From positions 2,183,485 through 2,247,484 of the forward strand of contig CBDBEO010000004.1 of the NCBI GenBank assembly GCA_965204455.1: DNA of 64,000 nt, given 5' to 3'. Made by a program: the position numbers and the translations under genes. The stretch is from an uncultured Candidatus Binatia bacterium. GTDB taxonomy: Bacteria > Desulfobacterota > Binatia > Bin18. Of the stretch, positions 14,142 through 43,854 are shown in pieces (position 1 is the first letter of the stretch; each line of letters opens with the position of its first letter). The notes beneath the pieces are model-generated. The model was not told the DNA's origin. It worked only from the letters and a program-made list of their open reading frames with translations, and searched no databases.

Positions 14142-16166
14142 ATGGAAAGTCGTTTACTGCGGGTCAATCTCAGCACCAACGAAATCAAGACCGAGATCAT
14201 TCCCCACGCCGTGTTCGAGCGCTGGATCGGCGGCTCGGGGATCAACAACTGGATCATGTGGGAGCACTTCCTGAACCACGACATCAACTGCGATCCCCGC
14301 GGGCCGGACAATATCTTTGTGTTCGGCGTCGGGCCGCTGGCCGGGACCGGGGCGGGTATTGGCGTCAAAGGCCGGATCACCTTCAAGAGCCCGTGCTACG
14401 GCATTTTTGGCGACTCGACCGGTGGCGGCAAGTTTCCCTATGTCGTGCGCTTCAGCGGCTATGACTATATTGCCGTGACCGGCAAGGCGCCCAAGCCGGT
14501 CTATCTGCACATCGCCAATAACGAGGTGACCCTGTGCGACGCCCGCCACCTGTGGGGCAAGAACAGCTCGGAAGCCCACGAGGCGCTGCAAAAAGAGCTG
14601 GGCGACTACCCGTCAGAGGTGCATACCCTGACTATCGGCCAGGCCGGTGAGAACCAGGTCGGTATTTCCGGCGTGATCTCGGACGGCTGGCGGATTCACG
14701 CCCGCTGCGGCGGCGGGGCGGTCATGGGCTCCAAGAACCTCAAGGCCATCGCCGTGCAGGGCAATCTGGGCATCAAGGTCGATAACCCGGGCGGGCTGCT
14801 CGACTGGTCGGACGATTTCCGCCACAAGATCGACACCAACGAGGCCGGCTACGGCTTCAAGCGGCGGGGGACGCTGGGAGCGGTGGAGATGTACCAGCGG
14901 ATCGGCGGCAATTTCTGGCGCAACAACCAGGGCGCGCTGTTCCGGGGCGAAGAGGTCCGCTCCGATAACTGGGTCAAGAAATACCACAAATACTCCGAGG
15001 TGTGTTCCTCCGACTGTTATATTGCCTGCGACGGGCGGTACAAAATCGAGGGCAACGAGTCGGACAAGGCCGAGAAATATATTGGCGAATCCTTCCGCCA
15101 TCCCGAGTATCTGACGACCGGCAGCAGTGCCGGAGCCATGGACGTTCGTGACTGGGCCGAGGTCGCCCACTGGGGCAAGATCACCAACGAGTACGGCATT
15201 GATAATCAGGACCTGAGCTGTTCCATCAGCTTCATCATGGAGCTGCGGCAGCGCGAGCTGATCTCCGATACGGATGTGGCCGAGCTGTTCGGCAAGTCCC
15301 AGCGGCTGGAGTGGGGCAATATGGAGGATATCGAGAGCCTGATCCGCAGCGTCGTCCACCAGGAGAACCCGTTCGGCTGGATGTTCCGCGACGGCGCCTA
15401 CTGGGGCGCGCTGCGCTACTCCGAGAAGATGGGCCAGAACTTCATGAAGTACGCCATCTACGGCAAGGGCGGGGCCAGCTTCACCGAGGAGATGCGGCCG
15501 TTTCCGACCTGGATGAATAATATGGCGGTGGCCTCGCGCGGGGCCGACCACCTCAAGGGCATCGGCCTGATCGAGAAATTCCAGCGCAAGGATCTGTCCA
15601 AGGCATACTTTGGCACGCCGATCGCCGGTGACCCGACCGTGCCCGATCTCAAGGGCGCCTGCACTGCGGTGATTGAAAACCAGGTGGCGCTGATCAACTC
15701 CTACGGGGTGTGCATGTTCCACTGGCTGCTCGATCCCCTGGGCTATGCGCCGGAGAGCTACTACGGCAAAGCCTACGCCGAGGTAACCGGCATCGACCGG
15801 ACCAAGGAAGAGCTGATGCGCGACGGCGAGCGGATCTGCAACCTGGAAAAAGCCTTTAACTCACGCCTGGGCATGCGGCGCGAGCACGACACCATCTGTG
15901 AGCGCTGGATGCACGAGCCGGCGCCGGAAGGCATGTACGAGGGCCGGGTGGCGGCCGATATGTTCGACCAGGTTTTGGACGAATATTACGAGTGGCGCGG
16001 CTGGGACAAAGCAACCGGCCTGCAAACGCAGTCCAAACTCGAAGAATTGGGTCTCCAGGATGTGGCCGACGTGCTGGCCTCGGAAAGAGCCCTGGCCGGC
16101 GAACAGGGCCGCAAGTCGGTGCAGGTGCTCAAGGCGTCGAGTGACGATCCCGGCCTGCCGGACTAA
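14142..16166 (+). CDS. aldehyde:ferredoxin oxidoreductase (tungsten-containing AOR family)
   Basis: 674 aa. ...GGSGINNWIM..., AVMGSKNLKAIAV and IGQAGEN hallmark motifs. Confidence 0.9.
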   Translation: MESRLLRVNLSTNEIKTEIIPHAVFERWIGGSGINNWIMWEHFLNHDINCDPRGPDNIFVFGVGPLAGTGAGIGVKGRITFKSPCYGIFGDSTGGGKFPYVVRFSGYDYIAVTGKAPKPVYLHIANNEVTLCDARHLWGKNSSEAHEALQKELGDYPSEVHTLTIGQAGENQVGISGVISDGWRIHARCGGGAVMGSKNLKAIAVQGNLGIKVDNPGGLLDWSDDFRHKIDTNEAGYGFKRRGTLGAVEMYQRIGGNFWRNNQGALFRGEEVRSDNWVKKYHKYSEVCSSDCYIACDGRYKIEGNESDKAEKYIGESFRHPEYLTTGSSAGAMDVRDWAEVAHWGKITNEYGIDNQDLSCSISFIMELRQRELISDTDVAELFGKSQRLEWGNMEDIESLIRSVVHQENPFGWMFRDGAYWGALRYSEKMGQNFMKYAIYGKGGASFTEEMRPFPTWMNNMAVASRGADHLKGIGLIEKFQRKDLSKAYFGTPIAGDPTVPDLKGACTAVIENQVALINSYGVCMFHWLLDPLGYAPESYYGKAYAEVTGIDRTKEELMRDGERICNLEKAFNSRLGMRREHDTICERWMHEPAPEGMYEGRVAADMFDQVLDEYYEWRGWDKATGLQTQSKLEELGLQDVADVLASERALAGEQGRKSVQVLKASSDDPGLPD

Positions 16167-18589: not shown

Positions 18590-20437
18590 ATGGCAAACGG
18601 ATGGACAGGCACGGTGCTGCGTATCAACCTGACGGAGCGGACCATTGCCAAAGAGCCGCTGAACGAACAGTGGGCCAAAGAGTATGTGGGCGGCCGTGGG
18701 CTCGGCGCCAGATATCTGACCGAGGAAGTGGACCCGACGGTCGACGCGCTCGACCCGGACAACAAGCTGCTGTTTGTGACCGGACCCCTGACCGGAACCA
18801 GCGCCTCGTGCGGCTCGCGCTACATGGTCGTCACCAAGGGGCCGCTGACCAACGCGATTACGACCTCGAATTCGGGCGGCTACTGGGGGCCGGAACTCAA
18901 GTTTGCCGGCTATGACATGCTGATTCTCGAAGGTCGGGCGTCGTCGCCGTGCTATCTGTGGATCTATGACGATGGGGTCGAACTCCGGGATGCCGGCGAG
19001 CTGTGGGGCAAAACGGTCTGGGAGACCGAGGAAGCCCTGCGCGCCGAACTGGGCGTGCCCGACACGATTATCGCCAGCATCGGTCCGGCCGGCGAGAACC
19101 TGGTCCGCTTTGCCTGCATCATGAACGATCTGCACCGGGCGGCCGGCCGCTCTGGGGTCGGCGCGGTCATGGGCTCAAAAAACCTCAAGGCGATTGCCGT
19201 GCGGGGGACCGGTGGGGTCAGCCTGGCCGACCCGCTGGCCTTCATGCAGGGCATGTGGACGATGAAGGAAAAGCTGCGCGAGTCGCCGGTCACCTCCCAG
19301 GGCTTGCCGATGTACGGCACCGAGGTTCTGGTCAATGTGATCAACGAACACGGCGCCCTGCCGACCCGCAACCACCAGCAGTCGGTGTTTGAAGAGGCCG
19401 AAGACATCAGCGGCGAGACGCTGACCGAAACACGGCTGGTGGCCAATAAGGCGTGCTTTTCGTGCGCGATTGCGTGTGGCCGGGTGTCCACCCTGCCGGG
19501 CGAGGCGTCGAGCAAGTACGAGGTCAGCACCAGCCCGCGGAACTGGAAGATTGCCGGCGAGGGACCCGAGTATGAGGCTGCCTGGGCCATGGGCTCGGAG
19601 TGCGGGATCGGCGATCTGGACGCCCTGATCAAGGCCAACTGGTTGTGCAACGATCTGGGCATGGACTCGATCAGCTTTGGCGCCACCGTGGCCGCAGCCA
19701 TGGAGCTGTACGAAAAGCAGGCCGTGTCGCTCGACCAGACCGAGATCCCGCTGGATTTCGGCAGTTCCGAGGCGCTGCTGAGCATGGCCGAGCGGATCGC
19801 CTATCGCCGGGGGTTTGGCACCGAGCTGGCCGAGGGCTCCAAACGCATGACCGAGAAGTTCGGGCATCCCGAGTTCTTCATGGGCGTGCGCGGTCAGGAG
19901 TTTGCCGCCTATGAAGCCCGCGCGATTCAGGGCATGGGCCTGGGCTATGCGACCTCGAACCGGGGCGCGTGTCATCTGAAGGCGTACACGGTGGCGGCCG
20001 AGATTCTGGGCCTGCCGCGTCAGATGGACCCCAACGAAACCGAGGGCAAGGCCGAGATCACCAAGCTGTTTCAGGATGCCACCTCGACGGTCGATGCCAC
20101 CGGGCTGTGCCAGTTCCTGACCTTTGGCGTAGGGCTGGAGGAAATGCTGCCCCAGCTGGCCGCAGCGACCGGGGTGGATTTCAAGCTGGAAGAGCTGCTG
20201 ACCATTGGCGAGCGGATCTGGAATCTGGAGCGGCGCTGGAATGAGCGGGCCGGCGTGGGCGGCACCGCGGATACCCTGCCCAAGCGCATTCTGGAGGAAC
20301 CGCTGCCGTCCGGCCCGGCCAAGGGCAAGGTCAACCGTCTGGGCGAGATGCTGCCCGAGTACTATGCGCTGCGCGGCTGGGACAAAGACGGCAATGTGAC
20401 GCCGGAGAAGCTGAAGGAGTTGGGCTTGGACGAATAA
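18590..20437 (+). CDS. aldehyde:ferredoxin oxidoreductase (tungsten AOR family, AorB-like)
   Basis: 615 aa. GGRGLGARYL and GAVMGSKNLKAIAVRG motifs. Paralogue of the gene at 14142. Confidence 0.9.
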   Translation: MANGWTGTVLRINLTERTIAKEPLNEQWAKEYVGGRGLGARYLTEEVDPTVDALDPDNKLLFVTGPLTGTSASCGSRYMVVTKGPLTNAITTSNSGGYWGPELKFAGYDMLILEGRASSPCYLWIYDDGVELRDAGELWGKTVWETEEALRAELGVPDTIIASIGPAGENLVRFACIMNDLHRAAGRSGVGAVMGSKNLKAIAVRGTGGVSLADPLAFMQGMWTMKEKLRESPVTSQGLPMYGTEVLVNVINEHGALPTRNHQQSVFEEAEDISGETLTETRLVANKACFSCAIACGRVSTLPGEASSKYEVSTSPRNWKIAGEGPEYEAAWAMGSECGIGDLDALIKANWLCNDLGMDSISFGATVAAAMELYEKQAVSLDQTEIPLDFGSSEALLSMAERIAYRRGFGTELAEGSKRMTEKFGHPEFFMGVRGQEFAAYEARAIQGMGLGYATSNRGACHLKAYTVAAEILGLPRQMDPNETEGKAEITKLFQDATSTVDATGLCQFLTFGVGLEEMLPQLAAATGVDFKLEELLTIGERIWNLERRWNERAGVGGTADTLPKRILEEPLPSGPAKGKVNRLGEMLPEYYALRGWDKDGNVTPEKLKELGLDE

Positions 20438-20489: not shown

Positions 20490-21950
20490 TTGAGCATGGC
20501 ACAACATATCATTATTGGCGCGGGTCCGGCCGGCGTGGCGGCGGCCGAAACCATTCGGGCTCACGATGCCGACGCATCGGTGAGCCTGATTTCCAACGAA
20601 CCGGCCTACTCGCGGATGGTGCTGCCGTATTATCTGGCCCAGGAAATCCCGGAAAAACACGTCTTGACCGGTGACCGGGACTATTTTGCCGAGCGGAACA
20701 TCGAGGCCCTGTTCGACACTGCGGTCAGCCGGGTTGACGGCGGACAAAAAACCATCACCCTCAGCGATGGCACGACCCGCGCGTTTGACAGCCTGCTGAT
20801 CGCGACCGGCTCATCCGCCCAACAGCCGCCGATTCCGGGCAGTGATCTGGAGGGAGTGTACGCGTTCTGGACCCTGGACGACGCCCAGAAGGTCATCGCC
20901 AAAGCCCAGGCCACGCCCAGCGCGGTGCTTATTGGCGCGGGCTTCATCGGTTTTATTGTCCTGAACGCCATGGCCAAGCTGAACTGGAAGCTGTCGGTAG
21001 TTGAGGCGGAAAACCAGGTCCTGCCGCGCATGCTCGACGCGACCGGGGCGGGGGCGGTTGAGGGTTGGCTCACGGCTCGTGATATCGCCGTCCATACCGC
21101 GACCCAGGTGCAGGAGATCCGGCCCAGCGCTGACGGGAAACTGTCGCTGGCCCTCAGTTCGGGACAGACGCTTGAGGCTGATCTTGTCATCATGGCCACC
21201 GGTATCCGGCCCAATAGTGATTTTCTGGCCGGTTCGGGGGTCAATGTCGAACCCGGCGGGATTCCGGTTGACGACCGGATGCAGACCAATGTCCCGGGCA
21301 TTTATGCGGCTGGTGACGTGGCGATTGGCCCGGATATCCTGGCCGGCCGTACCGCGTCCGACACTGCCGCCTCTGCCCACGCCATCCAGCCCACCGCAGT
21401 TGACCATGGGCGGATTGCCGGGGCCAATATGGCCGGCCACGAGACCCATTATCCGGGCAGCCTGCTGCTGAACGTCCTGGACGTGGTCAATCTGCACTGC
21501 GCCAGCTTTGGCCTGTGGCGGGACGAGGGCCACGACACCACGACGGTGTTCAATGCCAGCCGGCCGATCTACCGCAAATATGTGTGGCACGAAGACCGCC
21601 TCGTTGGCGCCCTGTTCGTCGGGCCGATTGACGACGTGACGATGCTGAACGATGTGGGCATGGTCAAGGGCCTGATTCAGACCCAGCAGCCCTTGGGCGA
21701 CTGGGCGGCCTATATCAAGGCGAATCCGACCGATGTGCGTCGCGCCTATGTGGCCAGCGGAGCCGCCCAGGCGCTGATCGGACGGACGCTGTTAGGCGCG
21801 CCGGCCCGCGACCGGGCCTATCGGGTTGACGGCAAAACGCCGCCGGCCTGGGATAAAACCGCCACCCACGGGCCGCTGGTCAGCACCCAGTCCGAGCACT
21901 ACCGCGAGCTGGACCCGACGCCGACCCCGGGGATCGGAAAGGCCGAGTGA
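20490..21950 (+). CDS. FAD/NAD(P)-binding pyridine nucleotide-disulfide oxidoreductase (AorC-like)
   Basis: IIGAGPAGVAAAE and AAGDVA Rossmann/FAD motifs. Same gene order as the NAD-linked AorABC complexes. Confidence 0.8.
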   Translation: MSMAQHIIIGAGPAGVAAAETIRAHDADASVSLISNEPAYSRMVLPYYLAQEIPEKHVLTGDRDYFAERNIEALFDTAVSRVDGGQKTITLSDGTTRAFDSLLIATGSSAQQPPIPGSDLEGVYAFWTLDDAQKVIAKAQATPSAVLIGAGFIGFIVLNAMAKLNWKLSVVEAENQVLPRMLDATGAGAVEGWLTARDIAVHTATQVQEIRPSADGKLSLALSSGQTLEADLVIMATGIRPNSDFLAGSGVNVEPGGIPVDDRMQTNVPGIYAAGDVAIGPDILAGRTASDTAASAHAIQPTAVDHGRIAGANMAGHETHYPGSLLLNVLDVVNLHCASFGLWRDEGHDTTTVFNASRPIYRKYVWHEDRLVGALFVGPIDDVTMLNDVGMVKGLIQTQQPLGDWAAYIKANPTDVRRAYVASGAAQALIGRTLLGAPARDRAYRVDGKTPPAWDKTATHGPLVSTQSEHYRELDPTPTPGIGKAE

Positions 21951-34685: not shown

Positions 34686-35060
34686 TCAGCTGGCGTCCTT
34701 CTTGTCAATCGAATCAAACACCTCCTGGGCAATCCGCAGCCCGTTCACCCCGACCGGCCAGCCGCCGTAATGGGCCAGATGAATCATGATCTCCTGGATT
34801 TTCTCACGGCTGAGGCCGACGTTGAGCGCCCCCCGAATATGTACCTTGAGTTCCGGGCTGCGACCCAGGACGGTCAGCGCGGCGACCGTAATCATCGAGC
34901 GCTCGTGGGTTTCCAGACCCGGCCGGCCCCAGATATCGCCAAACAGATTCTCGACCGTGATGTTCAGAAAATCGTTCTGCATCATGCCCGGGCGTGGTCC
35001 TGCGCCAAACAGCTCTTTCATTTTGGCGGCGCCTTTTTGGTAGCGTTCAGATTCTGCCAT
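34686..35060 (-). CDS. carboxymuconolactone decarboxylase-family protein
   Basis: ...RSMITVAALTVLGRSPELKVHIRGALNVGLSREKIQEIMIHLAHYGGWP... CMD/AhpD-like core. Confidence 0.8.
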   Translation of the reverse strand: MAESERYQKGAAKMKELFGAGPRPGMMQNDFLNITVENLFGDIWGRPGLETHERSMITVAALTVLGRSPELKVHIRGALNVGLSREKIQEIMIHLAHYGGWPVGVNGLRIAQEVFDSIDKKDAS

Positions 35061-35170
35061 CGTCTCTCCTCCTTAGGTGGAATAGCGGGTGGAATAGCGC
35101 ACCCTTGCGGGCCATCAGTCGGTTGTCTAGTATCAGACGATCTATCGCCGAGTCAAAGCAAAGGACGCGC

Positions 35171-36385
35171 ATGGTTGCCGAGAAGTCCGTCGGTCCCCTG
35201 CATGGGATTCGTGTTGTTGAGTGCGGCCATATGGTCGGGGCGGCGTATGCCACAAAGCTGATGGCTGACCTTGGCGCTGAGGTGGTGAAGGTCGAAGAAC
35301 CCGGCGGCGATGACGCCCGACGCCGGGGGCCCTACCCCGATGACAGCCCTCACCCGGAAAAGAGCGGGCTGTTCCTGTACCTGAATACCAACAAGCTCGG
35401 CGTGACGCTGGACTTGCAACAGGCCAGGGGGCGCGAGCTGTTCCGCGGCTTGGTGCAAGAGGCCGATTTGCTGGTCCACAACTATCCGCCGCCCGACATG
35501 GCGGCGCGCGGCCTGGACTACGAAGCCTTCCGCGAGCTGAATCCCGGTCTGGTGATGACCTCGATTTCTCCGTTTGGCCAGACCGGCCCCAACCGTGACT
35601 ACCACACTCACGATCTGACCATGTGGAGTGCGGGCGGCATTGTCTATCTGAGCGGCGCCTCCGGGCGGGAAGATCTGCCGCCGCTGAAAGCCTTCGGCCA
35701 GCAGGCCGGGCTGCAGGCCGGGGTGAACGCGGCGGTCGGCTCTCTCGGCGCGCTGTTCAGACGCGCCGCCGGCGGGCAGGGGCAACACGTGGATGTGTCC
35801 GTGCAGGAGTGCCTGGTAGCGATCATGGAGAACAACTATATCTCCTGGCCGTATGACGGCAGCGTGGCCTCACGCCTCGGCTTTCGGCTCATTCCGCAGG
35901 ACGTGCTGCCGTGCCGTGACGGGTATATCTACGTCCTGGCCATTGAAGATCACCAGTGGAACGGCGCCATGGAGCTGATGGGCAACCCCGAGTGGGCGTC
36001 GATGGATCTGTTTCAGGATTTTCCCTCGCGGTCGGCCAACTGGGACGCGCTGAAGCCCCTGCTTGAGGACTATCTGCAGGACAAATCGGTTCAGGAAACC
36101 TACCATGCCGCCCAGGCCAGGCGCGTGCCGTTTGCCCCGGTTTCGACCATGGGCGATCTGCTGGACTCTGCGCACCTGAACGCACGTGGTTTTTTTGCCA
36201 GTATCGGCCATCCCCAAGCCGGGACACTCCGTTACCCGGGCGCTCCGTATCAGTTCTCGGCCTCGCCGTGGCTGCTGAGCCGCCCGGCCCCCTGCCTGGG
36301 ACAGCACAACGTCGAGGTATTTGGCGGTCGTCTGGGCCTTGGGCAGGCGGAGTTGGAGCGGCTGAAAGAAGACAAGGTCATCTGA
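35171..36385 (+). CDS. CoA-transferase family III (CaiB/BaiF) protein
   Basis: GIRVVECGHMVGAAYATKLMADLGAEVVKVE N-terminal signature. Confidence 0.85.
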   Translation: MVAEKSVGPLHGIRVVECGHMVGAAYATKLMADLGAEVVKVEEPGGDDARRRGPYPDDSPHPEKSGLFLYLNTNKLGVTLDLQQARGRELFRGLVQEADLLVHNYPPPDMAARGLDYEAFRELNPGLVMTSISPFGQTGPNRDYHTHDLTMWSAGGIVYLSGASGREDLPPLKAFGQQAGLQAGVNAAVGSLGALFRRAAGGQGQHVDVSVQECLVAIMENNYISWPYDGSVASRLGFRLIPQDVLPCRDGYIYVLAIEDHQWNGAMELMGNPEWASMDLFQDFPSRSANWDALKPLLEDYLQDKSVQETYHAAQARRVPFAPVSTMGDLLDSAHLNARGFFASIGHPQAGTLRYPGAPYQFSASPWLLSRPAPCLGQHNVEVFGGRLGLGQAELERLKEDKVI

Positions 36386-36397
36386 AGAGAGATCGCC

Positions 36398-37615
36398 ATG
36401 GACAACCAGCTTCCCCTGTCCGGTATTCGTGTGGCCGACTTCACCTGGGTCTGGGCTGGCCCGTTTGCGACCCTGCAGCTGGCCCATCTGGGCGCCGAGG
36501 TGATTCGTATCGAGACCGAGAACCGGGTGTGTGTGACCCGTCGCATCCCGCCCTTTGCCGACGGCGAGCCGGGACCCAACCGCAGCGGGTACTACAACCA
36601 GTACAATCAGGGCAAGGCCTCGGTGTGTCTGAACCTGAAGAAGCCCGAGGGCATCGCCATCGCCAAAAAACTGGTCGCGGCCAGCGATGTTGTGGCCGAG
36701 AACTTTGCCGGCGGGGTGATGAACAAGATGGGTCTGGGCTACGAGGTCCTGAAGCAGATCAAATCCGATATCATCATGATCTCCATGTCCGGCTATGGGG
36801 CGACCGGACCGGAGAGTGCCTATGTGTCCTACGGCCCAGCTCAGGTGCCGATGAGTGGCTTGTCGTCGGTGACGGGTTTTCCCGGCTTCCCGCCCATGCA
36901 CGTGGGCTTCTCATACGGAGACCCCAACGGCGGTCTGCACGGCGCCTTCGCCGTCCTGGCCGCGCTCATGCACCGGGCTCGGACGGGTGAGGGCCAGTAT
37001 ATCGACCTCTCCCAGTGGGAGACCTCGCTAACCCTGTTGGGTGAGGGACTGATGGCCCAGCAGATGCACGGCGAGCCGCCGTCCCGGGTTGGCAATCGGG
37101 ACGCCCATATGGCGCCCCACGGGCTGTTTCGGTGCCAGGGCCAGGACCGCTGGGTGAGCATTGTTGTGGCCAACGAGGACGAATGGCAATGCTTGTGCCA
37201 GGCTCTGGGCCAGCCCGAGCTGGCAACCGACACGCGTTTTGCCAGCCTGGCCGACCGTAAAAAGAATGAGGACGCGCTTGAAGCGCTGATCGGCGCCTGG
37301 ACCCAAGCCCGGACGGATGACGAGGTCACCCGTACCCTGCAAGCCGCTGGCGTGGCGGCTTTCCCGGCTCTCACCAACCAGGACTTGGCCCAGGATCAAC
37401 ACCTGCAAGAGCGCGGCTTTTTTGTCGAGCATCCGCACCCCGAGGTTGGCCCACGCCGCCATGCCGGCGTGCCCTGGGTGTTCTCTGACACGCCGTGTCA
37501 GGTTCGCCAACCGGCCCCGTGTCTGGGCCAGGACACCGACGCGGTGCTCCAGGACCTCTTGGGCTACTCGGCCGACGAGGTCGCGGCCTTGCGCGCTGAC
37601 GCGGTGCTGACCTAG
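36398..37615 (+). CDS. CoA-transferase family III (CaiB/BaiF) protein, second tandem paralogue
   Basis: GIRVADFTWVWAGPFATLQLAHLGAEVIRIE N-terminal signature. Confidence 0.85.
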   Translation: MDNQLPLSGIRVADFTWVWAGPFATLQLAHLGAEVIRIETENRVCVTRRIPPFADGEPGPNRSGYYNQYNQGKASVCLNLKKPEGIAIAKKLVAASDVVAENFAGGVMNKMGLGYEVLKQIKSDIIMISMSGYGATGPESAYVSYGPAQVPMSGLSSVTGFPGFPPMHVGFSYGDPNGGLHGAFAVLAALMHRARTGEGQYIDLSQWETSLTLLGEGLMAQQMHGEPPSRVGNRDAHMAPHGLFRCQGQDRWVSIVVANEDEWQCLCQALGQPELATDTRFASLADRKKNEDALEALIGAWTQARTDDEVTRTLQAAGVAAFPALTNQDLAQDQHLQERGFFVEHPHPEVGPRRHAGVPWVFSDTPCQVRQPAPCLGQDTDAVLQDLLGYSADEVAALRADAVLT

Positions 37616-38189: not shown

Positions 38190-39815
38190 ATGAGTGAATC
38201 GACCGCCTCTGTCGCCAAGTCCATGGACGCCATCGTCGCCCTGTGCAGACGCCGCGGCTTCATTTTTCAGTCGTCCGAGCTGTACGGCGGCATCAACGGG
38301 TTCTGGGACTACGGCCCGCTCGGCGCCGAGTTGAAACGCAACCTCAAGGAAGCCTGGTGGCAGGACGTGGTCCGTTGCCCGGCCGCCGGCCCGGACGGCA
38401 GGCCGATCGAGATCGTGCCGGTTGATGCGACCATCATCATGAATCCCAAGGTCTGGGAAGCCTCGGGACACCTGGGCGGTTTTTCCGATCTGATGAGTAC
38501 CTGCCGGCACTGCAAGAAGCTCGTACGGTACGACCACATCTGGGAGATGATTCATGAGAGTAACGGGTATGCTTCACTTAAAGAGTTGCATGAGGCGGGG
38601 AATGTGACCGCCGAAAGCATGAAAAGCATGACACGCTGGACGGAAAAGGTCGCAAAAAAAAGCATTCCGAATTCGGCTCTTGTTCGTGATCCCGGGGGCA
38701 CGCTTATGCTCCTTGCTGATGTATTGGCACTTGGTCCCATTAACAAGGTGGACGACTTGTTCCTGTTGCTTACTACAGGGTGGGACGGGATAGGCCCACG
38801 GCCGCAGCCGCCGTGCCCGTTCTGTGGCGGGGAAATCACCGACCCAAAACCCTTCAACCTGATGTTCAAAACCACCACCGGCGCGGTTGAAGACCCGTCT
38901 GCGGTCGCCTACCTGCGGCCGGAGACCGCCCAGGGCATCTTCACCCAGTTCTGGAATGTGCTCGACAGCAACCGGGTCAAGGTGCCGTTTGGCATCGCCC
39001 AGATAGGTAAGGCGTTTCGCAACGAGGTCACGCCGCGCAACTTCACCTTCCGTTCCCGCGAGTTTGAACAGATGGAGCTGGAGTTCTTTATTCATCCCGA
39101 CCAGGCTCAGGAGTGGTACCAGTATTGGCGCGACGCGCGGTTTGGCTGGTGGCAGTCAATCGGTCTGGCCGGCGAGAACCTGACCCTGCGCGAGCACGAC
39201 CCGGATGAGCTCGCCCACTACGCCAGAGAAGGGGCCGGGACGAGCGATGTCGAATACCGTTTCCCGTTTACCGCTCCCGGCTATGGTGAACTGGAGGGCG
39301 TTGCCCACCGTGCCGACTACGATCTGCGCCAGCACGCCGAGCACTGTGGGCAGGGCGATAAGCTGCGCTATTTCGATGCGGACCGCAACGAGCGCTATTT
39401 CCCGCACGTCATCGAGCCCAGCGCCGGGGCCGACCGGGGAACCCTGGCTGCGCTGTGTGAAGCCTACACTCCCGATGAACAGCGGCCCAGCAAGGTCTAC
39501 ATGAGGTTCCACCCACGGCTGGCCCCGCTCAAGGCGGCCGTCTTTCCGCTGGTCAATAAAGCGGGCATGCCCGAGCTTGCCGAAAAGCTCTACCACGAGC
39601 TGCGGCCCAGGTACGCCGTCCAGTTCGACGCCAAGCAGAGCATCGGCAAGCGCTACGCGCGCATGGACGAGGCCGGCACCCCGTACTGCTTCACCATCGA
39701 CGGGGAGACGCTGACCGGTCAGACCGTGACCGTGCGGCACCGCGATTCGCTGCAACAGGAACGCATCGGCCTCGACCAAGTCGCGCCCTTCCTGGCCGAC
39801 AAGATTGGGCAGTGA
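38190..39815 (+). CDS. glyQS: glycine--tRNA ligase (alpha2 dimeric type)
   Basis: CRRRGFIFQSSELYGGINGFWDYGPLG, FNLMFKTTTG, LRPETAQGIFTQF, IAQIGKAFRNEVTPRNFTFRSREFEQMELEFF and IEPSAGADRG class II motifs. Confidence 0.9.
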   Translation: MSESTASVAKSMDAIVALCRRRGFIFQSSELYGGINGFWDYGPLGAELKRNLKEAWWQDVVRCPAAGPDGRPIEIVPVDATIIMNPKVWEASGHLGGFSDLMSTCRHCKKLVRYDHIWEMIHESNGYASLKELHEAGNVTAESMKSMTRWTEKVAKKSIPNSALVRDPGGTLMLLADVLALGPINKVDDLFLLLTTGWDGIGPRPQPPCPFCGGEITDPKPFNLMFKTTTGAVEDPSAVAYLRPETAQGIFTQFWNVLDSNRVKVPFGIAQIGKAFRNEVTPRNFTFRSREFEQMELEFFIHPDQAQEWYQYWRDARFGWWQSIGLAGENLTLREHDPDELAHYAREGAGTSDVEYRFPFTAPGYGELEGVAHRADYDLRQHAEHCGQGDKLRYFDADRNERYFPHVIEPSAGADRGTLAALCEAYTPDEQRPSKVYMRFHPRLAPLKAAVFPLVNKAGMPELAEKLYHELRPRYAVQFDAKQSIGKRYARMDEAGTPYCFTIDGETLTGQTVTVRHRDSLQQERIGLDQVAPFLADKIGQ

Positions 39816-39819
39816 GATC

Positions 39820-39848
39820 CCGGGCTGCGACTCGTGCCCGCAGCCCGG
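39820..39848. terminator. 10-bp perfect inverted repeat hairpin between convergent glyS and the pilin-like gene
   Basis: ccgggctgcg-actcgtgcc-cgcagcccgg. GC-rich stem with no clear U-tract, so it may be a bidirectional terminator. Confidence 0.45.
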
Positions 39849-39886
39849 CTCAACCTCAGGGCTGGTCCATAATTCTGCCAGCCCGG

Positions 39887-40261
39887 CTATTGCCACTCGG
39901 GCTGCCCGCCTTGGGCCAGGACGTAACTGTTCCCCTTGGGACAATCGGAACCGTCGGGTTGGAGGTCGGTGCCGGTGACGGTGACAAGCCCGCTGGTGTC
40001 AATGGACAGATTGACGCCGTCACTGGCAGCAATTCCCAGCAGGCTCAGATCCGTGGTGTACTCGCTGTTGGCCGCATAGTAGGCTTCGAGGGCGAGCATG
40101 GTGTTGCTCACATCCGACTCGACCCGCGAACAATATGCGCTGCGACGATAGCTGGCGAACTGCGGAACGGCGAAGGCGGCCAGGATGCCGATGATGGTGA
40201 TGACGACGAGCAGTTCGATCAGGGTAAAGCCTGTGTTGTCCTTGTGAAATGTCTGCGACAT
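39887..40261 (-). CDS. type IV pilin/pseudopilin-like protein (prepilin N-terminal cleavage/methylation domain)
   Basis: MSQTFHKDNTG-FTLIELLVVITIIGILAAFAVP canonical class III signal. GGAGGA RBS. This is the C-terminal part of the long minus ORF 39887..42220, whose remainder is a shadow of selB. Confidence 0.8.
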   Translation of the reverse strand: MSQTFHKDNTGFTLIELLVVITIIGILAAFAVPQFASYRRSAYCSRVESDVSNTMLALEAYYAANSEYTTDLSLLGIAASDGVNLSIDTSGLVTVTGTDLQPDGSDCPKGNSYVLAQGGQPEWQ

Positions 40262-40435
40262 AGGATCCTCCTGCGCCTCTAAAGCTCTCGCACCGGATAC
40301 CACACCGCATATGAATAAGCAAACTGTCTGTATTATAACTCTGCTTTCCGATCGACGCCGGTCTTTTCTCCCGGCTGGCTTCCTTTTCCCCATCCTTTTT
40401 GCCAGAATGCCGTTTGCCCGCGCGGGAGTGACTCC

Positions 40436-42382
40436 ATGCCGCACATTATTGGGACTGCCGGCCATATTGATCACGGCAAAACGGCGCTGATTAAGGCCCT
40501 GACCGGCCACGACACGGACCGCCTCCAGGAGGAACAGGAGCGCGGCATTTCTATCGAATTGGGATTTGCCTATCTGGATCTGCCCGATGGCGAGCGGGCC
40601 GGGATTGTCGACGTGCCCGGCCATGAGCGTTTTATCCGCAATATGCTGGCCGGAGCGCACGGCATTGATCTGGTTCTCTTCACCGTTGCTGCGGATGACG
40701 GCGTCATGCCCCAGAGCGAAGAGCACCTGGATTTTTTGCATCTGTTGGGTCTCACAAATGGGATCTTCGTGATTACCAAGGCCGACTTGGTTGATGCCAA
40801 GCGCCTGGCCGATGTGCGTGAAGAGATCGAAATTCTGACTCTTGACTCTACCCTGGAAGGCGCCCCGATTGTGACGGTTTCTGCGGTCACTGGTGATGGC
40901 ATTGCCGAACTCCGCAGCGCTATCGCCACCCGGCTGGCGGACTACGAGCGGCCGTCCCTGCCGGGCTATTTCCGTTTGCCTGTGGACCGGGCGTTTGTGA
41001 TGAAGGGACACGGGGTGGTGGTGACGGGTACGGCCACAGCCGGCAGTGTCCAGAGCGGGGCAACTGTCAGACTCCTGCCCGGTGGAGAAGAAACCCGGGT
41101 GCGCTCCATGCAGGTCCACGGTCAAACGGTCCCCCAGGCCAGCTGGGGCCAGCGCGTTGCGCTGAATCTGGTCGGTTTGGAAAAAAGCGCGATCACCCGC
41201 GGTCATGTCGTGTGTCATCCCAAGCTCAGCCGCACCACGCAACGGTTTGACGCCTGGGTTGAGATTCGGCCCGGGGTCAAGCGCGAGGTCATCAATCATG
41301 AGCGCATCCGGGTGCATGTCGGGACGGCCGAGGTGCTGGGAAAAATCATTCTGCTGAACGGTCAGGATAGCCTTGCGCCCCGCTCGGCCGCCTTTGCCCA
41401 GATCGTTGTCGAGGAGCCGGTCGTTGCCCTGCGTGGCGACCGTTTCATCGTGCGTAATCACACCGCCCAGGCTACGCTGGGGGGTGGCGAGGTGGTCAAT
41501 CCCTTTGCCACCCGTCACCGCCGCCTCAAGGCCCGGTCGGCCGGGCAGGGCGGTATCCAAGACCGGCTGGCCCTGCTGCGGACGACTGACCTGCTCCAAG
41601 CCTGTCGCGCCTATATTGAAATACAGCCCGAGTTTGCCGTCTCGCTCGACAACATTTATCAGGGCGTGAACGCGCAGGAAAAAGAAGTCGCGCCGCTCCT
41701 GGTCCAAGATGCAGAGATTCTGCCCCTGCCGGACGCCGATCATCCCGAGGCGTACGCGACGCTCGGCAAGTGGCAGCGACTGACCGCCACGGTGGATCGT
41801 ATGCTGACTGACTTTCATGCCCGCACGCCCCTGGCCCAGGGCATGGAGTTGGAGTCGCTGCGCAGTCAGCTTGCCTTTGCGCCGAAAATTTTTCGGGCGG
41901 TGACGGACAAATTGGTCACCGAGCGCTGTGTGGTGCGTGAGCAGAGCACGCTCCGCCTGCCATCGCACCGCGTGGAGCTGAGCGAGGCTGAGCAAGCGCT
42001 GAGTGCCCGCCTGGAGCGGCTGGTGGCCGACGGTGGTTTTACGCCTCCGGAGGTCAAAGACCTGGAGACTGCGCTGGCCGTCCCGCGCAAGCAGTTTCTT
42101 GACCTGCTGGGCATTTTGGAGTCCCAACACAAGCTGGTGAAGGTCAGCACAGACCTCTACTTGAGTCAAAAGCGCGCAGACCAGGCCCGTTCTGTCCTGG
42201 TCGAACACCTGACCGAGCACGGGGAAATATCGGCCGCAACATTTCGGGATGCCTTGGGCATCAGTCGGAAGACGGCCATCCCCTTACTGGAGTACTTCGA
42301 CCGGACCGGGCTGACGCTACGGGTTGGCGATATTCGGAAACTGCGCAAAGCCGAGACAACCCCGGCAAGACCCTCAGTGTAA
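40436..42382 (+). CDS. selB: selenocysteine-specific translation elongation factor SelB
   Basis: AGHIDHGKT...DVPGHERF... GTPase domain, then winged-helix C-terminal domains. Matches E. coli SelB. Confidence 0.9.
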
Positions 42383-42390
42383 AGGACAGT

Positions 42391-43491
42391 ATGGGTAGCA
42401 CACCTCAACGGACCGAGGATCAGCGTTCGAGAATCCGCCTGACCGAAAAAGTGAAAGCCGCCGGTTGAGCGGGGAAATTGGGTCCGGCGGACCTGGCACA
42501 CGTCCTGAGCGAGCTGCCCCGCGAGCAGCACCCCGATCTGCTGGTTGGCGTGGAAACCTCAGATGACGCCGGCGTGTTTCGCCTGAGCGATGACCTGGCT
42601 GTTATTAATACGGTCGATTTTTTTACCCCGGTGGTGGACGACCCGTACACCTACGGGCTCATTTCGGCCGCCAACTCGCTCAGCGATGTCTACGCCATGG
42701 GCGGTGAGCCGAAAACGGCACTGAATATCGTCTGTTTTCCCCAGGATGGGGTCGATAAGAGCGTGCTGGCCGAGATTCTGCACGGGGGAGCGGCAAAAGT
42801 GCGGGAGGCTGGAGCGGCGCTGGTCGGCGGACATTCGGTTGCCGATGAGGAGATTAAATACGGTTTGGCCGTGACTGGAGTAGTCCATCCCCAGCGCGTA
42901 GTGCGCAATGTCGGCGCTCAGGTGGGCGATGTGCTGATCCTGACCAAACCGCTGGGCACGGGCATTATCACCACTGCGCTGAAACGCGGCCGTCTCCAGG
43001 ATCGGCAAAATACGGAACACGATACGGAATACACGGCGGCGGTCGATTCGATGGCGAGCCTGAACCGCACCGCCAGCCACGTCATGGCCCGCTACACGGT
43101 CCACGCGTGCACCGATGTAACCGGATTCAGTCTGATGGGCCACGGCTATGAGATGGCCCACGGCAGCGGAGTCAGCCTCCGGCTACGGGCCGCCCGATTT
43201 CCGGTCTTGCCGGGCGCCCTGCGTCTGGCCTCAGAGGGCTATCTGACCGGTGGCTGCAAACGCAACCGCAGCTATCTGGCCGATAAAGTCCATGTGTCGC
43301 CAGGGCTTACCGCCGAGCTTGCCGAGCTTGCCTTTGATCCACAAACCTCGGGCGGTCTGCTCATGGCTGTACCCGAATCTGAGGCCAAGGCTTGTGTGCA
43401 GGCGCTTGAGAATGTCGGGATATCGGCCGCAGCCGTGGTCGGGGAGGTTGTTCCACACACCGAGCATTGGGTGGAAGTTGTTGAAGACTAA
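42391..43491 (+). CDS. selD: selenide, water dikinase SelD (selenoprotein with in-frame UGA-Sec at 42466-42468)
   Basis: Upstream in-frame translation MGSTPQRTEDQRSRIRLTEKVKAAG-U-AGKLGPADL... corresponds to E. coli RLTQYSHGAGCGCKISP (Sec replaces Cys17). AAGGA RBS. The ORF caller only reported the region after the TGA (42478..43491). Confidence 0.85.
42469..42496 (+). promoter_or_regulatory. putative bacterial SECIS-like hairpin downstream of the selD UGA
   Basis: ggtcc-ggc-ggacc stem-loop starting 13 nt after the UGA. Spacing is compatible with SelB-dependent recoding. Confidence 0.35.
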
Positions 43492-43569
43492 ACCTGCTTG
43501 AAAATGATACCGAAGGGTTATCGGGGAGAGAGATTCTCTTGCTTGAGAGCAGTTGGCGGGAGCGCGACC

Positions 43570-43593
43570 CACATCGCGCTCCGTCTGTTCGCC
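43570..43593 (+). terminator. putative terminator hairpin after selD
   Basis: ggagcgcg-acccacat-cgcgctcc (8-bp stem), followed by gtctgtt. Confidence 0.4.
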
Positions 43594-43854
43594 GTCCACG
43601 AGCTGAAATGAACCAGCAGCGTCAGAAGTACCAACCGTGTAGCAGCGAAAGCACCAACTGCTCTATACCACCACCACATCCACCACCACATCCACTACCC
43701 TTATAGCGGACATCGTCACACATTTCAAGCTTTGCATGAGATTTTTTTCATTCTTCAGGATAAACATGAATAATTCAGGGTAAGTATGAATAAATCCTCC
43801 CCTTTAACTGCCATGCTTGACTCCTTGTTCGGCATCGTTTAAGGCTCGTCCAGG

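Follow-up and report, generated by a model that had tools for sequence, protein, structure and literature searches.

The window, by which we mean the whole 64-kb stretch of DNA analysed here, carries the genes selB and selD side by side on the forward strand, surrounded by glyS, a pilin-like gene on the minus strand, lolC/E, lolD, and bamA (Table 1). The closest genomes are Candidatus Binatia/Binatota metagenome-assembled genomes (MAGs) with 99%, 97%, and 84% protein identity, the last two being represented by CBDEVZ010000008.1 and OZ243961.1, respectively. A look-up of the exact proteins encoded at the two ends of the window, made in order to extend it, returned no records. SelB scored 388.5 bits against NCBIfam TIGR00475 (cutoff 242; 5.7e-116) and contains the Pfam domains GTP_EFTU, Beta-barrel_SelB, SelB-wing_2, and SelB-wing_3. 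The first-pass annotation had placed this gene directly upstream of selD with its stop 9 nt before the start; the position is correct and the gene is full length, and the spacing between the TAA (42380–42382) and the selD ATG is 8 nt. We found no predicted terminator or promoter within this 8-nt gap, and the intergenic gaps flanking the pair are larger. The short spacing, the lack of such signals in the gap, and the larger flanking gaps together suggest a single transcript, from which both proteins are probably made. selB precedes selD also in eight related loci (L002–L009), and the identity of SelB across relatives is 70–96%. No SECIS-like regulatory hairpin was seen in the selB leader.

Table 1. 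Positions of the genes and sequence elements discussed in the text
Feature	Coordinates	Strand	Details	Basis
Pilin-like gene, 124 aa	39887–40261	−	Prepilin-type N-terminal methylation motif GFTLIELLVV...; divergent from selB	PF07963, 3e-09
selB, Sec-specific elongation factor	40436–42382	+	648 aa, TAA stop	TIGR00475, Pfam
Shine–Dalgarno sequence AGGA of selD	42383–42386	+	4 nt upstream of ATG	Direct sequence reading
selD, full-length CDS	42391–43491	+	366 codons including predicted Sec26, TAA stop	Translation
UGA, predicted Sec codon	42466–42468	+	Residue 26	Aligned with E. coli Cys17; TGA kept in relatives
Lys29 codon of UxxK motif	42475–42477	+	Upstream of miscalled TTG	Corresponds to E. coli Lys20
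TTG (Leu30)	42478–42480	+	False start in ORF finding and public calls	
Predicted bacterial SECIS hairpin	42478–42496	+		Fold, bSECIS rules, covariation

The remainder of the window offered no further selenoprotein genes: a scan for pairs of ORFs joined by TGA gave only same-frame neighbours and spurious GC-rich ORFs. A forward-strand ORF in the interval between glyS and selB (39812–40282, 156 aa) was considered as a partner gene and rejected, as it is antisense to the pilin-like gene; it matches no family and appears to be spurious. Elsewhere in the window, two paralogous aldehyde:ferredoxin oxidoreductase genes with AFOR_N and AFOR_C domains (14142–16166 and 18590–20437, forward strand) are followed by a pyridine nucleotide-disulphide oxidoreductase (20490–21950), and two family III CoA-transferases lie in tandem (34994–36385 and 36398–37615, forward strand); none of these has an obvious link to selenium. 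The gap between selD and lolC/E (43492–43854) consists of 363 nt of noncoding sequence with a short imperfect repeat, ccaccaccacatccaccaccacatccac, at approximately 43669–43696 and an AT-rich stretch that holds the only promoter-like match of the region (43745–43774).

The selD Reading Frame Continues across an In-Frame UGA

The frame of selD opens at ATG 42391–42393 with MGSTPQRTEDQRSRIRLTEKVKAAG, reaches a TGA at 42466–42468, resumes with AGKLGPADLAHVL, and closes at TAA 43489–43491. There are 25 codons between the ATG and the TGA, which makes the latter codon 26. This reading, MGSTPQRTEDQRSRIRLTEKVKAAG-TGA-AGKLGPADL, is exactly the one that the first-pass annotation had given. Upstream of the conserved SelD N-terminus (IRLTEKVKAAG), the ATG at 42391 is the sole in-frame start; relatives retain the homologous ATG, and in six of them (L001, L003–L005, L007, and L008) it is likewise preceded by a purine-rich aGGA or GAGGA.

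When the TGA was replaced by Cys, the translated protein scored 392.8 bits against TIGR00476 (cutoff 125; 1e-117), with residues 16–331 matching positions 1–310 of the 311 in the model. As the match begins at residue 16 with the very first model position, the N-terminal extension belongs to the SelD family, and the proposed alignment of the upstream codons to the SelD N-terminus thus stands. The protein contains the Pfam domains AIRS and AIRS_C, and its best relatives of solved structure are the SelD proteins of E. coli (3u0o) and Aquifex aeolicus (2yye). The segment U26-A-G-K29 aligns with Cys17 and Lys20 of the E. coli protein, and the A. aeolicus chain aligns in the same manner; the UGA therefore falls on the Cys/Sec17 position to which it had been assigned, and the lysine is conserved. 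A UxxK motif is listed for Sec-containing SelD (PMC13188914). With both the TIGR00476 match and the [C/U]xxK motif in place, the predicted product is a member of the selenophosphate synthetase family. The ATP-dependent synthesis of selenophosphate from selenide is the activity of the family and, for the protein described here, is predicted from sequence.

Mechanical ORF finding begins the gene at the TTG (ORF 42478–43491), and so do three public protein calls (P0001–P0003) of 337 aa that begin with MGPADL; these are 98–99% identical to the SelD of the window and are cut at the UGA. The first-pass annotation was right that the true start lies upstream of the called ORF. Its distance of 75 nt, on the other hand, is that from the ATG to the TGA; the ATG lies 87 nt upstream of the called TTG. 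Truncated annotation of Sec-containing SelD is a recognised database problem (PMC13326102), and the three 337-aa calls are examples of that error. A deposited SelD call of 358 aa from one related locus (L160, 7889–8965, NCBI assembly GCA_035650655.1) spans the UGA, and this record appears to treat the protein as full-length already.

The conservation of the UGA and of the codons before it was assessed among Binatia-like Sec-type selD genes. A TGA is found at the identical column in every Binatia-like relative recovered (L001–L009, L084–L087, L129, and L160) and likewise in dozens of selD genes from Clostridium and Desulfobacterota, plus others; Cys-type homologues have TGT or TGC (TGY) at this column. 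Across 13 relatives, codons −15 to −1 before the TGA show 70 synonymous and 26 nonsynonymous codon differences, and the variable sites comprise 15/15 third, 7/15 first, and 7/15 second codon positions. Judged by these patterns, the 25 codons upstream of the TGA are evolving as coding sequence, under apparent purifying selection in the frame of selD.

A Short Hairpin after the UGA Is Maintained by Compensatory Change

Directly after the UGA, the sequence can form a hairpin with the core GGUCC-GGC-GGACC (GGTCC-GGC-GGACC in the DNA; 42481–42493), in which the stem pairs 42481–42485 with 42489–42493 around the loop GGC (42486–42488) and is extended by wobble pairing of 42478–42480 with 42494–42496. 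The first base of the core stem is the 13th nucleotide after the TGA, as the first-pass annotation had reported. According to the consensus rules of the bSECISearch model, which we took from PMC13188914, a bacterial SECIS has a loop of 3–9 nt, an upper stem of 4–16 bp, a G at one or both of the first two loop positions (usually G[G/U]), a UGA-to-loop distance of 16–37 nt, and a minimum free energy no higher than −7.5 kcal/mol. The selD hairpin falls within all four rules: it has a 3-nt loop, 5 Watson–Crick pairs (6–8 pairs when G–U pairs are included), a loop opening with GG, which is invariant at that place in almost all of 51 Sec-type selD genes, and a spacing of 17 nt between the end of the UGA (42468) and the start of the loop (42486). 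The folding energy, −8.2 kcal/mol for 42477–42500, is barely under the limit and no better than that of shuffled sequence.

Single-sequence folding statistics were set aside as evidence for a SECIS, the z-scores being nonsignificant for the 24-nt segment (−1.07), the 13-nt core (−1.83), and segments of 45 nt (+0.45) and 81 nt (+1.36). Given the peptide GPADL and the codon usage of the window, the synonymous choices needed to form the stem (GGU 0.19 × GCG 0.28) are expected with a probability of ∼5%. The exact 13-mer of the hairpin occurs once in the window, with near-matches at chance level, and a search against Rfam gave no SECIS match either in the whole window at the gathering threshold or in 42380–42580 with E values up to 10, the only matches being a tRNA-Ala and a chance hit to a lncRNA. 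Since the hairpin alone is weak in terms of energy and codon usage, support for it has to come from the comparison with related genes.

That comparison gave consistent signals. A block of 14 nt, GGTCCGGCGGACCT, is invariant in 14 genes from the Binatia-like Sec-type set, including four synonymous sites, namely the third bases of the codons for Gly, Pro, Ala, and Asp. Outside the block third positions vary: 11/15 downstream (the other 11) and 15/15 upstream of the UGA. Among 51 distinct Sec-type selD genes, three stem pairs show changes in both partners; the central pair is G–C in 32 genes, U–A in 13, A–U in 5, and a nonpair in 1. The covariation score of 0.280 compares with 0.109 for shuffles, none of which reached the observed value (0/500), and with at most 0.076 for registers in which the 3′ arm was slid. 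The covariation of the central pair comes from the Gly codon, whose synonymous third base changes in step with the second base of codon 8 to give the combinations GGU/GAC, GGA/GUC, and GGG with GCU or ACC. Among genes encoding GPADL, the stem is perfect in 16/16 of Sec type and in 1/4 of Cys type (P = 0.0035, Fisher's exact test, indicative only as it ignores the relatedness of the sequences). From these comparisons, the structure of the predicted hairpin is maintained by compensatory change, and the earlier reading of the stem-loop as a SECIS is borne out by the consensus rules and by the covariation in the 51 genes.

The one Cys-type gene with a perfect stem (L082, 750–797; JGI Ga0534154_0110217) has UGC in place of UGA, within ...AAGCAAKLGPADL, and this Cys codon is followed by a hairpin identical to that of Sec-type genes, GGUCCGGCGGACC. 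A recent change from Sec to Cys may have left it behind as a relic SECIS; the stem can thus persist, or arise, without a UGA. The other three Cys-type GPADL genes have lost the stem. The string UUGGGUCCGGCGGACCU is also present in the "canonical SECIS element" that BSepDB gives for the Sec-containing SelD of Acetomicrobium mobile. When longer stretches are folded at minimum free energy, the hairpin gains outer helices; these are not conserved among the relatives.

The Sec-Decoding Trait and the Location of selA

The trait for decoding Sec is represented in the window by the full-length selB, matching TIGR00475 and including the winged-helix domains. We searched for selA by tblastn with an approximate E. 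coli SelA probe and for tRNA-Sec with ARAGORN, in the window and in 80 genome and 76 metagenome loci, which covers at most ∼84 kb of each multimegabase genome. Within the 64-kb window, tblastn did not find selA, and ARAGORN and Rfam found only a tRNA-Ala and no tRNA-Sec. In nine close relatives (L001–L009), the 10 kb on either side of selD likewise yielded neither gene, and ARAGORN detected no tRNA-Sec in the 80 genome and 76 metagenome loci. In these loci, selA was found only beside selD genes of the Clostridium type and some of high GC content, and not near the closest relatives of the window. Protein searches with the SelA of L087 and of a Binatia MAG retrieved several SelA proteins labelled as Binatia and located none on the chromosomes of the nearest relatives.

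More distant loci contain selA, selB, and Sec-type selD as a single operon, among them L087 (2594–6868), L129, and L160 (4553–8965), the last from a MAG labelled Candidatus Binatia by NCBI. The sub-lineage of the window (L002–L008) has the order glyS ... selB–selD–lolC with no selA nearby. On the evidence of gene order, selA has apparently become separated from selB–selD in this sub-lineage, leaving an ancestral selA–selB–selD operon. To our knowledge, the delivery of Sec is the only role of SelB, and the retention of an intact, conserved SelB is a strong argument for the presence of the Sec trait in the lineage.

Alternative Readings of the UGA

The observations above could be explained in other ways. 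The 337-aa product reported by gene callers in three sources, and the normal use of TGA as a stop elsewhere in the window, would fit a UGA that is a real stop, with SelD starting from the TTG at 42478 and the 25 upstream codons forming an unrelated ORF. Such a protein, however, would lack the counterparts of both Cys17 and Lys20 of E. coli, and the 25 codons dismissed as unrelated match the SelD model and appear to be under purifying selection in its frame. An AGGA stands before the ATG at 42391, whereas the TTG has no Shine–Dalgarno sequence, and truncation of this kind is a documented annotation error (PMC13326102). We find a real stop very unlikely. Reassignment of the genetic code does not explain the UGA either, since TGA is the ordinary stop of the neighbouring genes glyS, lolC/E, and lolD, whose family models match to the end. 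As a separate observation, selB and selD both end in TAA and these three neighbours in TGA; with only two genes involved, this may be due to chance. The conservation of the TGA effectively refutes both an error of sequencing or assembly and a recent mutation that would have made selD a pseudogene: independent assemblies with protein identities from 56% to 99% share it, and the frame is intact on both sides.

More subtle are the readings in which the UGA is translated by other means. A lineage that had lost selA might read it through as a residue other than Sec, with Cys or Trp inserted by a near-cognate or mischarged tRNA; neither selA nor tRNA-Sec was found in the window or beside the selB–selD pair of the closest relatives, and selB of other Binatia has selA as its immediate upstream neighbour. 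Against this, the intact selB is kept directly upstream at 70–96% identity across relatives, the SECIS-type hairpin bears the marks of selection in its invariance and covariation, simple loss of the Sec trait usually goes together with a change of UGA to UGY, as in the Cys-type homologues, and the searches for selA and selC extended over at most ∼84 kb of each multimegabase genome. We give such read-through hardly any credence. It is similarly far-fetched that selA or selC is truly absent and that SelB decodes the UGA and hairpin noncanonically, through another route to Sec-tRNA or with Cys at the UGA. The role of the hairpin can be doubted independently of the residue: the UGA may be genuine Sec and the stem mainly a by-product of the GPADL peptide, the functional SECIS being different or larger. 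The stem lies wholly inside conserved codons, its chance expectation from codon usage is ∼5%, its folding energy is unexceptional, a Cys-type gene has it in identical form, and longer folds add outer helices. Yet a by-product would not account well for the four synonymous sites held invariant in 14 genes amid variable third positions (11/15 downstream and 15/15 upstream), for the covariation of the Gly third base with the second base of codon 8, or for the stem being broken in 3/4 of the Cys-type GPADL genes, and the outer helices lack conservation among the relatives; we regard a by-product as unlikely. On balance, we are highly confident that selD of the window encodes a Sec-containing selenophosphate synthetase in which the UGA is decoded as Sec by means of a bacterial SECIS hairpin. 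We infer both the actual insertion of Sec at the UGA and the binding of SelB to the hairpin from the sequence.

Discussion

Under the Sec-decoding reading, which most likely follows the textbook mechanism, translation of selD would start from the ATG at 42391 and, as the ribosome reaches the UGA, SelB carrying GTP and Sec-tRNA(Sec) would bind the hairpin at 42478–42496, a short in-frame SECIS with GG in its apical loop, placed 17 nt after the UGA. The UGA at 42466–42468 would then be decoded as Sec26 by the Sec-tRNA(Sec) that SelB delivers, and Sec26 and Lys29 would together make up the N-terminal catalytic loop (UxxK) of SelD. The two-gene unit of selB and selD would probably place on one transcript the UGA-reading factor together with the selenoprotein responsible for providing the selenium donor. 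Production of SelD must depend on the supply of selenium, since the enzyme itself makes the donor required for its Sec residue, and by the logic of Sec-dependent SelD an autoregulation by selenium supply is plausible.

The protein has close counterparts among known systems. Sec-containing SelD/SPS2 (TIGR00476), as in A. aeolicus (PDB 2yye/2zod), A. mobile (BSepDB), and Clostridium, belongs to the same family and has its Sec in the UxxK motif; the SelD described here shows no structural difference from it and is set apart by its host, a Candidatus Binatia-like lineage. Its predicted SECIS also lies in frame directly after the UGA, with a core identical to the database SECIS of A. mobile. The gene orders differ: selB–selD without an adjacent selA in the window, selD–selA–selB in Clostridium, and selA–selB–selD in other Binatia. 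The Cys-type SelD of E. coli (3u0o) has the same fold and domains, aligned over residues 13–356, and the same loop, G-x-G-[C/U]-x-x-K; its Cys17 is encoded by UGY and needs no recoding, whereas here a UGA is followed by a predicted SECIS. Like the elements of E. coli fdhF and fdnG and the bSECIS consensus, the selD hairpin is a stem-loop that directly follows the UGA inside the coding region, has G at the opening positions of its loop, and keeps a UGA-to-loop distance within 16–37 nt. The fdhF element is ∼40 nt long, and the selD hairpin is much shorter, with 5 Watson–Crick pairs, or 8 with wobble, and a 3-nt loop; this putative ligand of SelB also has no bulged U.

Only one prokaryotic selenoprotein family is more widespread than Sec-containing SelD, and approximately one-fifth of prokaryotic SelD genes have Sec at the same site (PMC13188914, PMC4561486); in one reference genome set, 19% of SelD genes encode Sec, "always in the same position" (PMC4561486). 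A full-text literature search for "Binatota" together with "selenocysteine" returned one paper, which has selenocysteine in its reference list only. The SelD of the window is a typical representative of its family, and both this family and its type of SECIS are well known; this is already known biology, and it adds nothing new to that of selenium. The practical value lies in the annotation: a selenoprotein of 366 residues starting from 42391 should take the place of the 337-aa calls, in which the loop with the catalytic Sec and Lys is missing. Sec-type selD also marks this Binatia-like organism as a user of Sec; further genes of its genome that contain a UGA may therefore have been miscalled in the same way.
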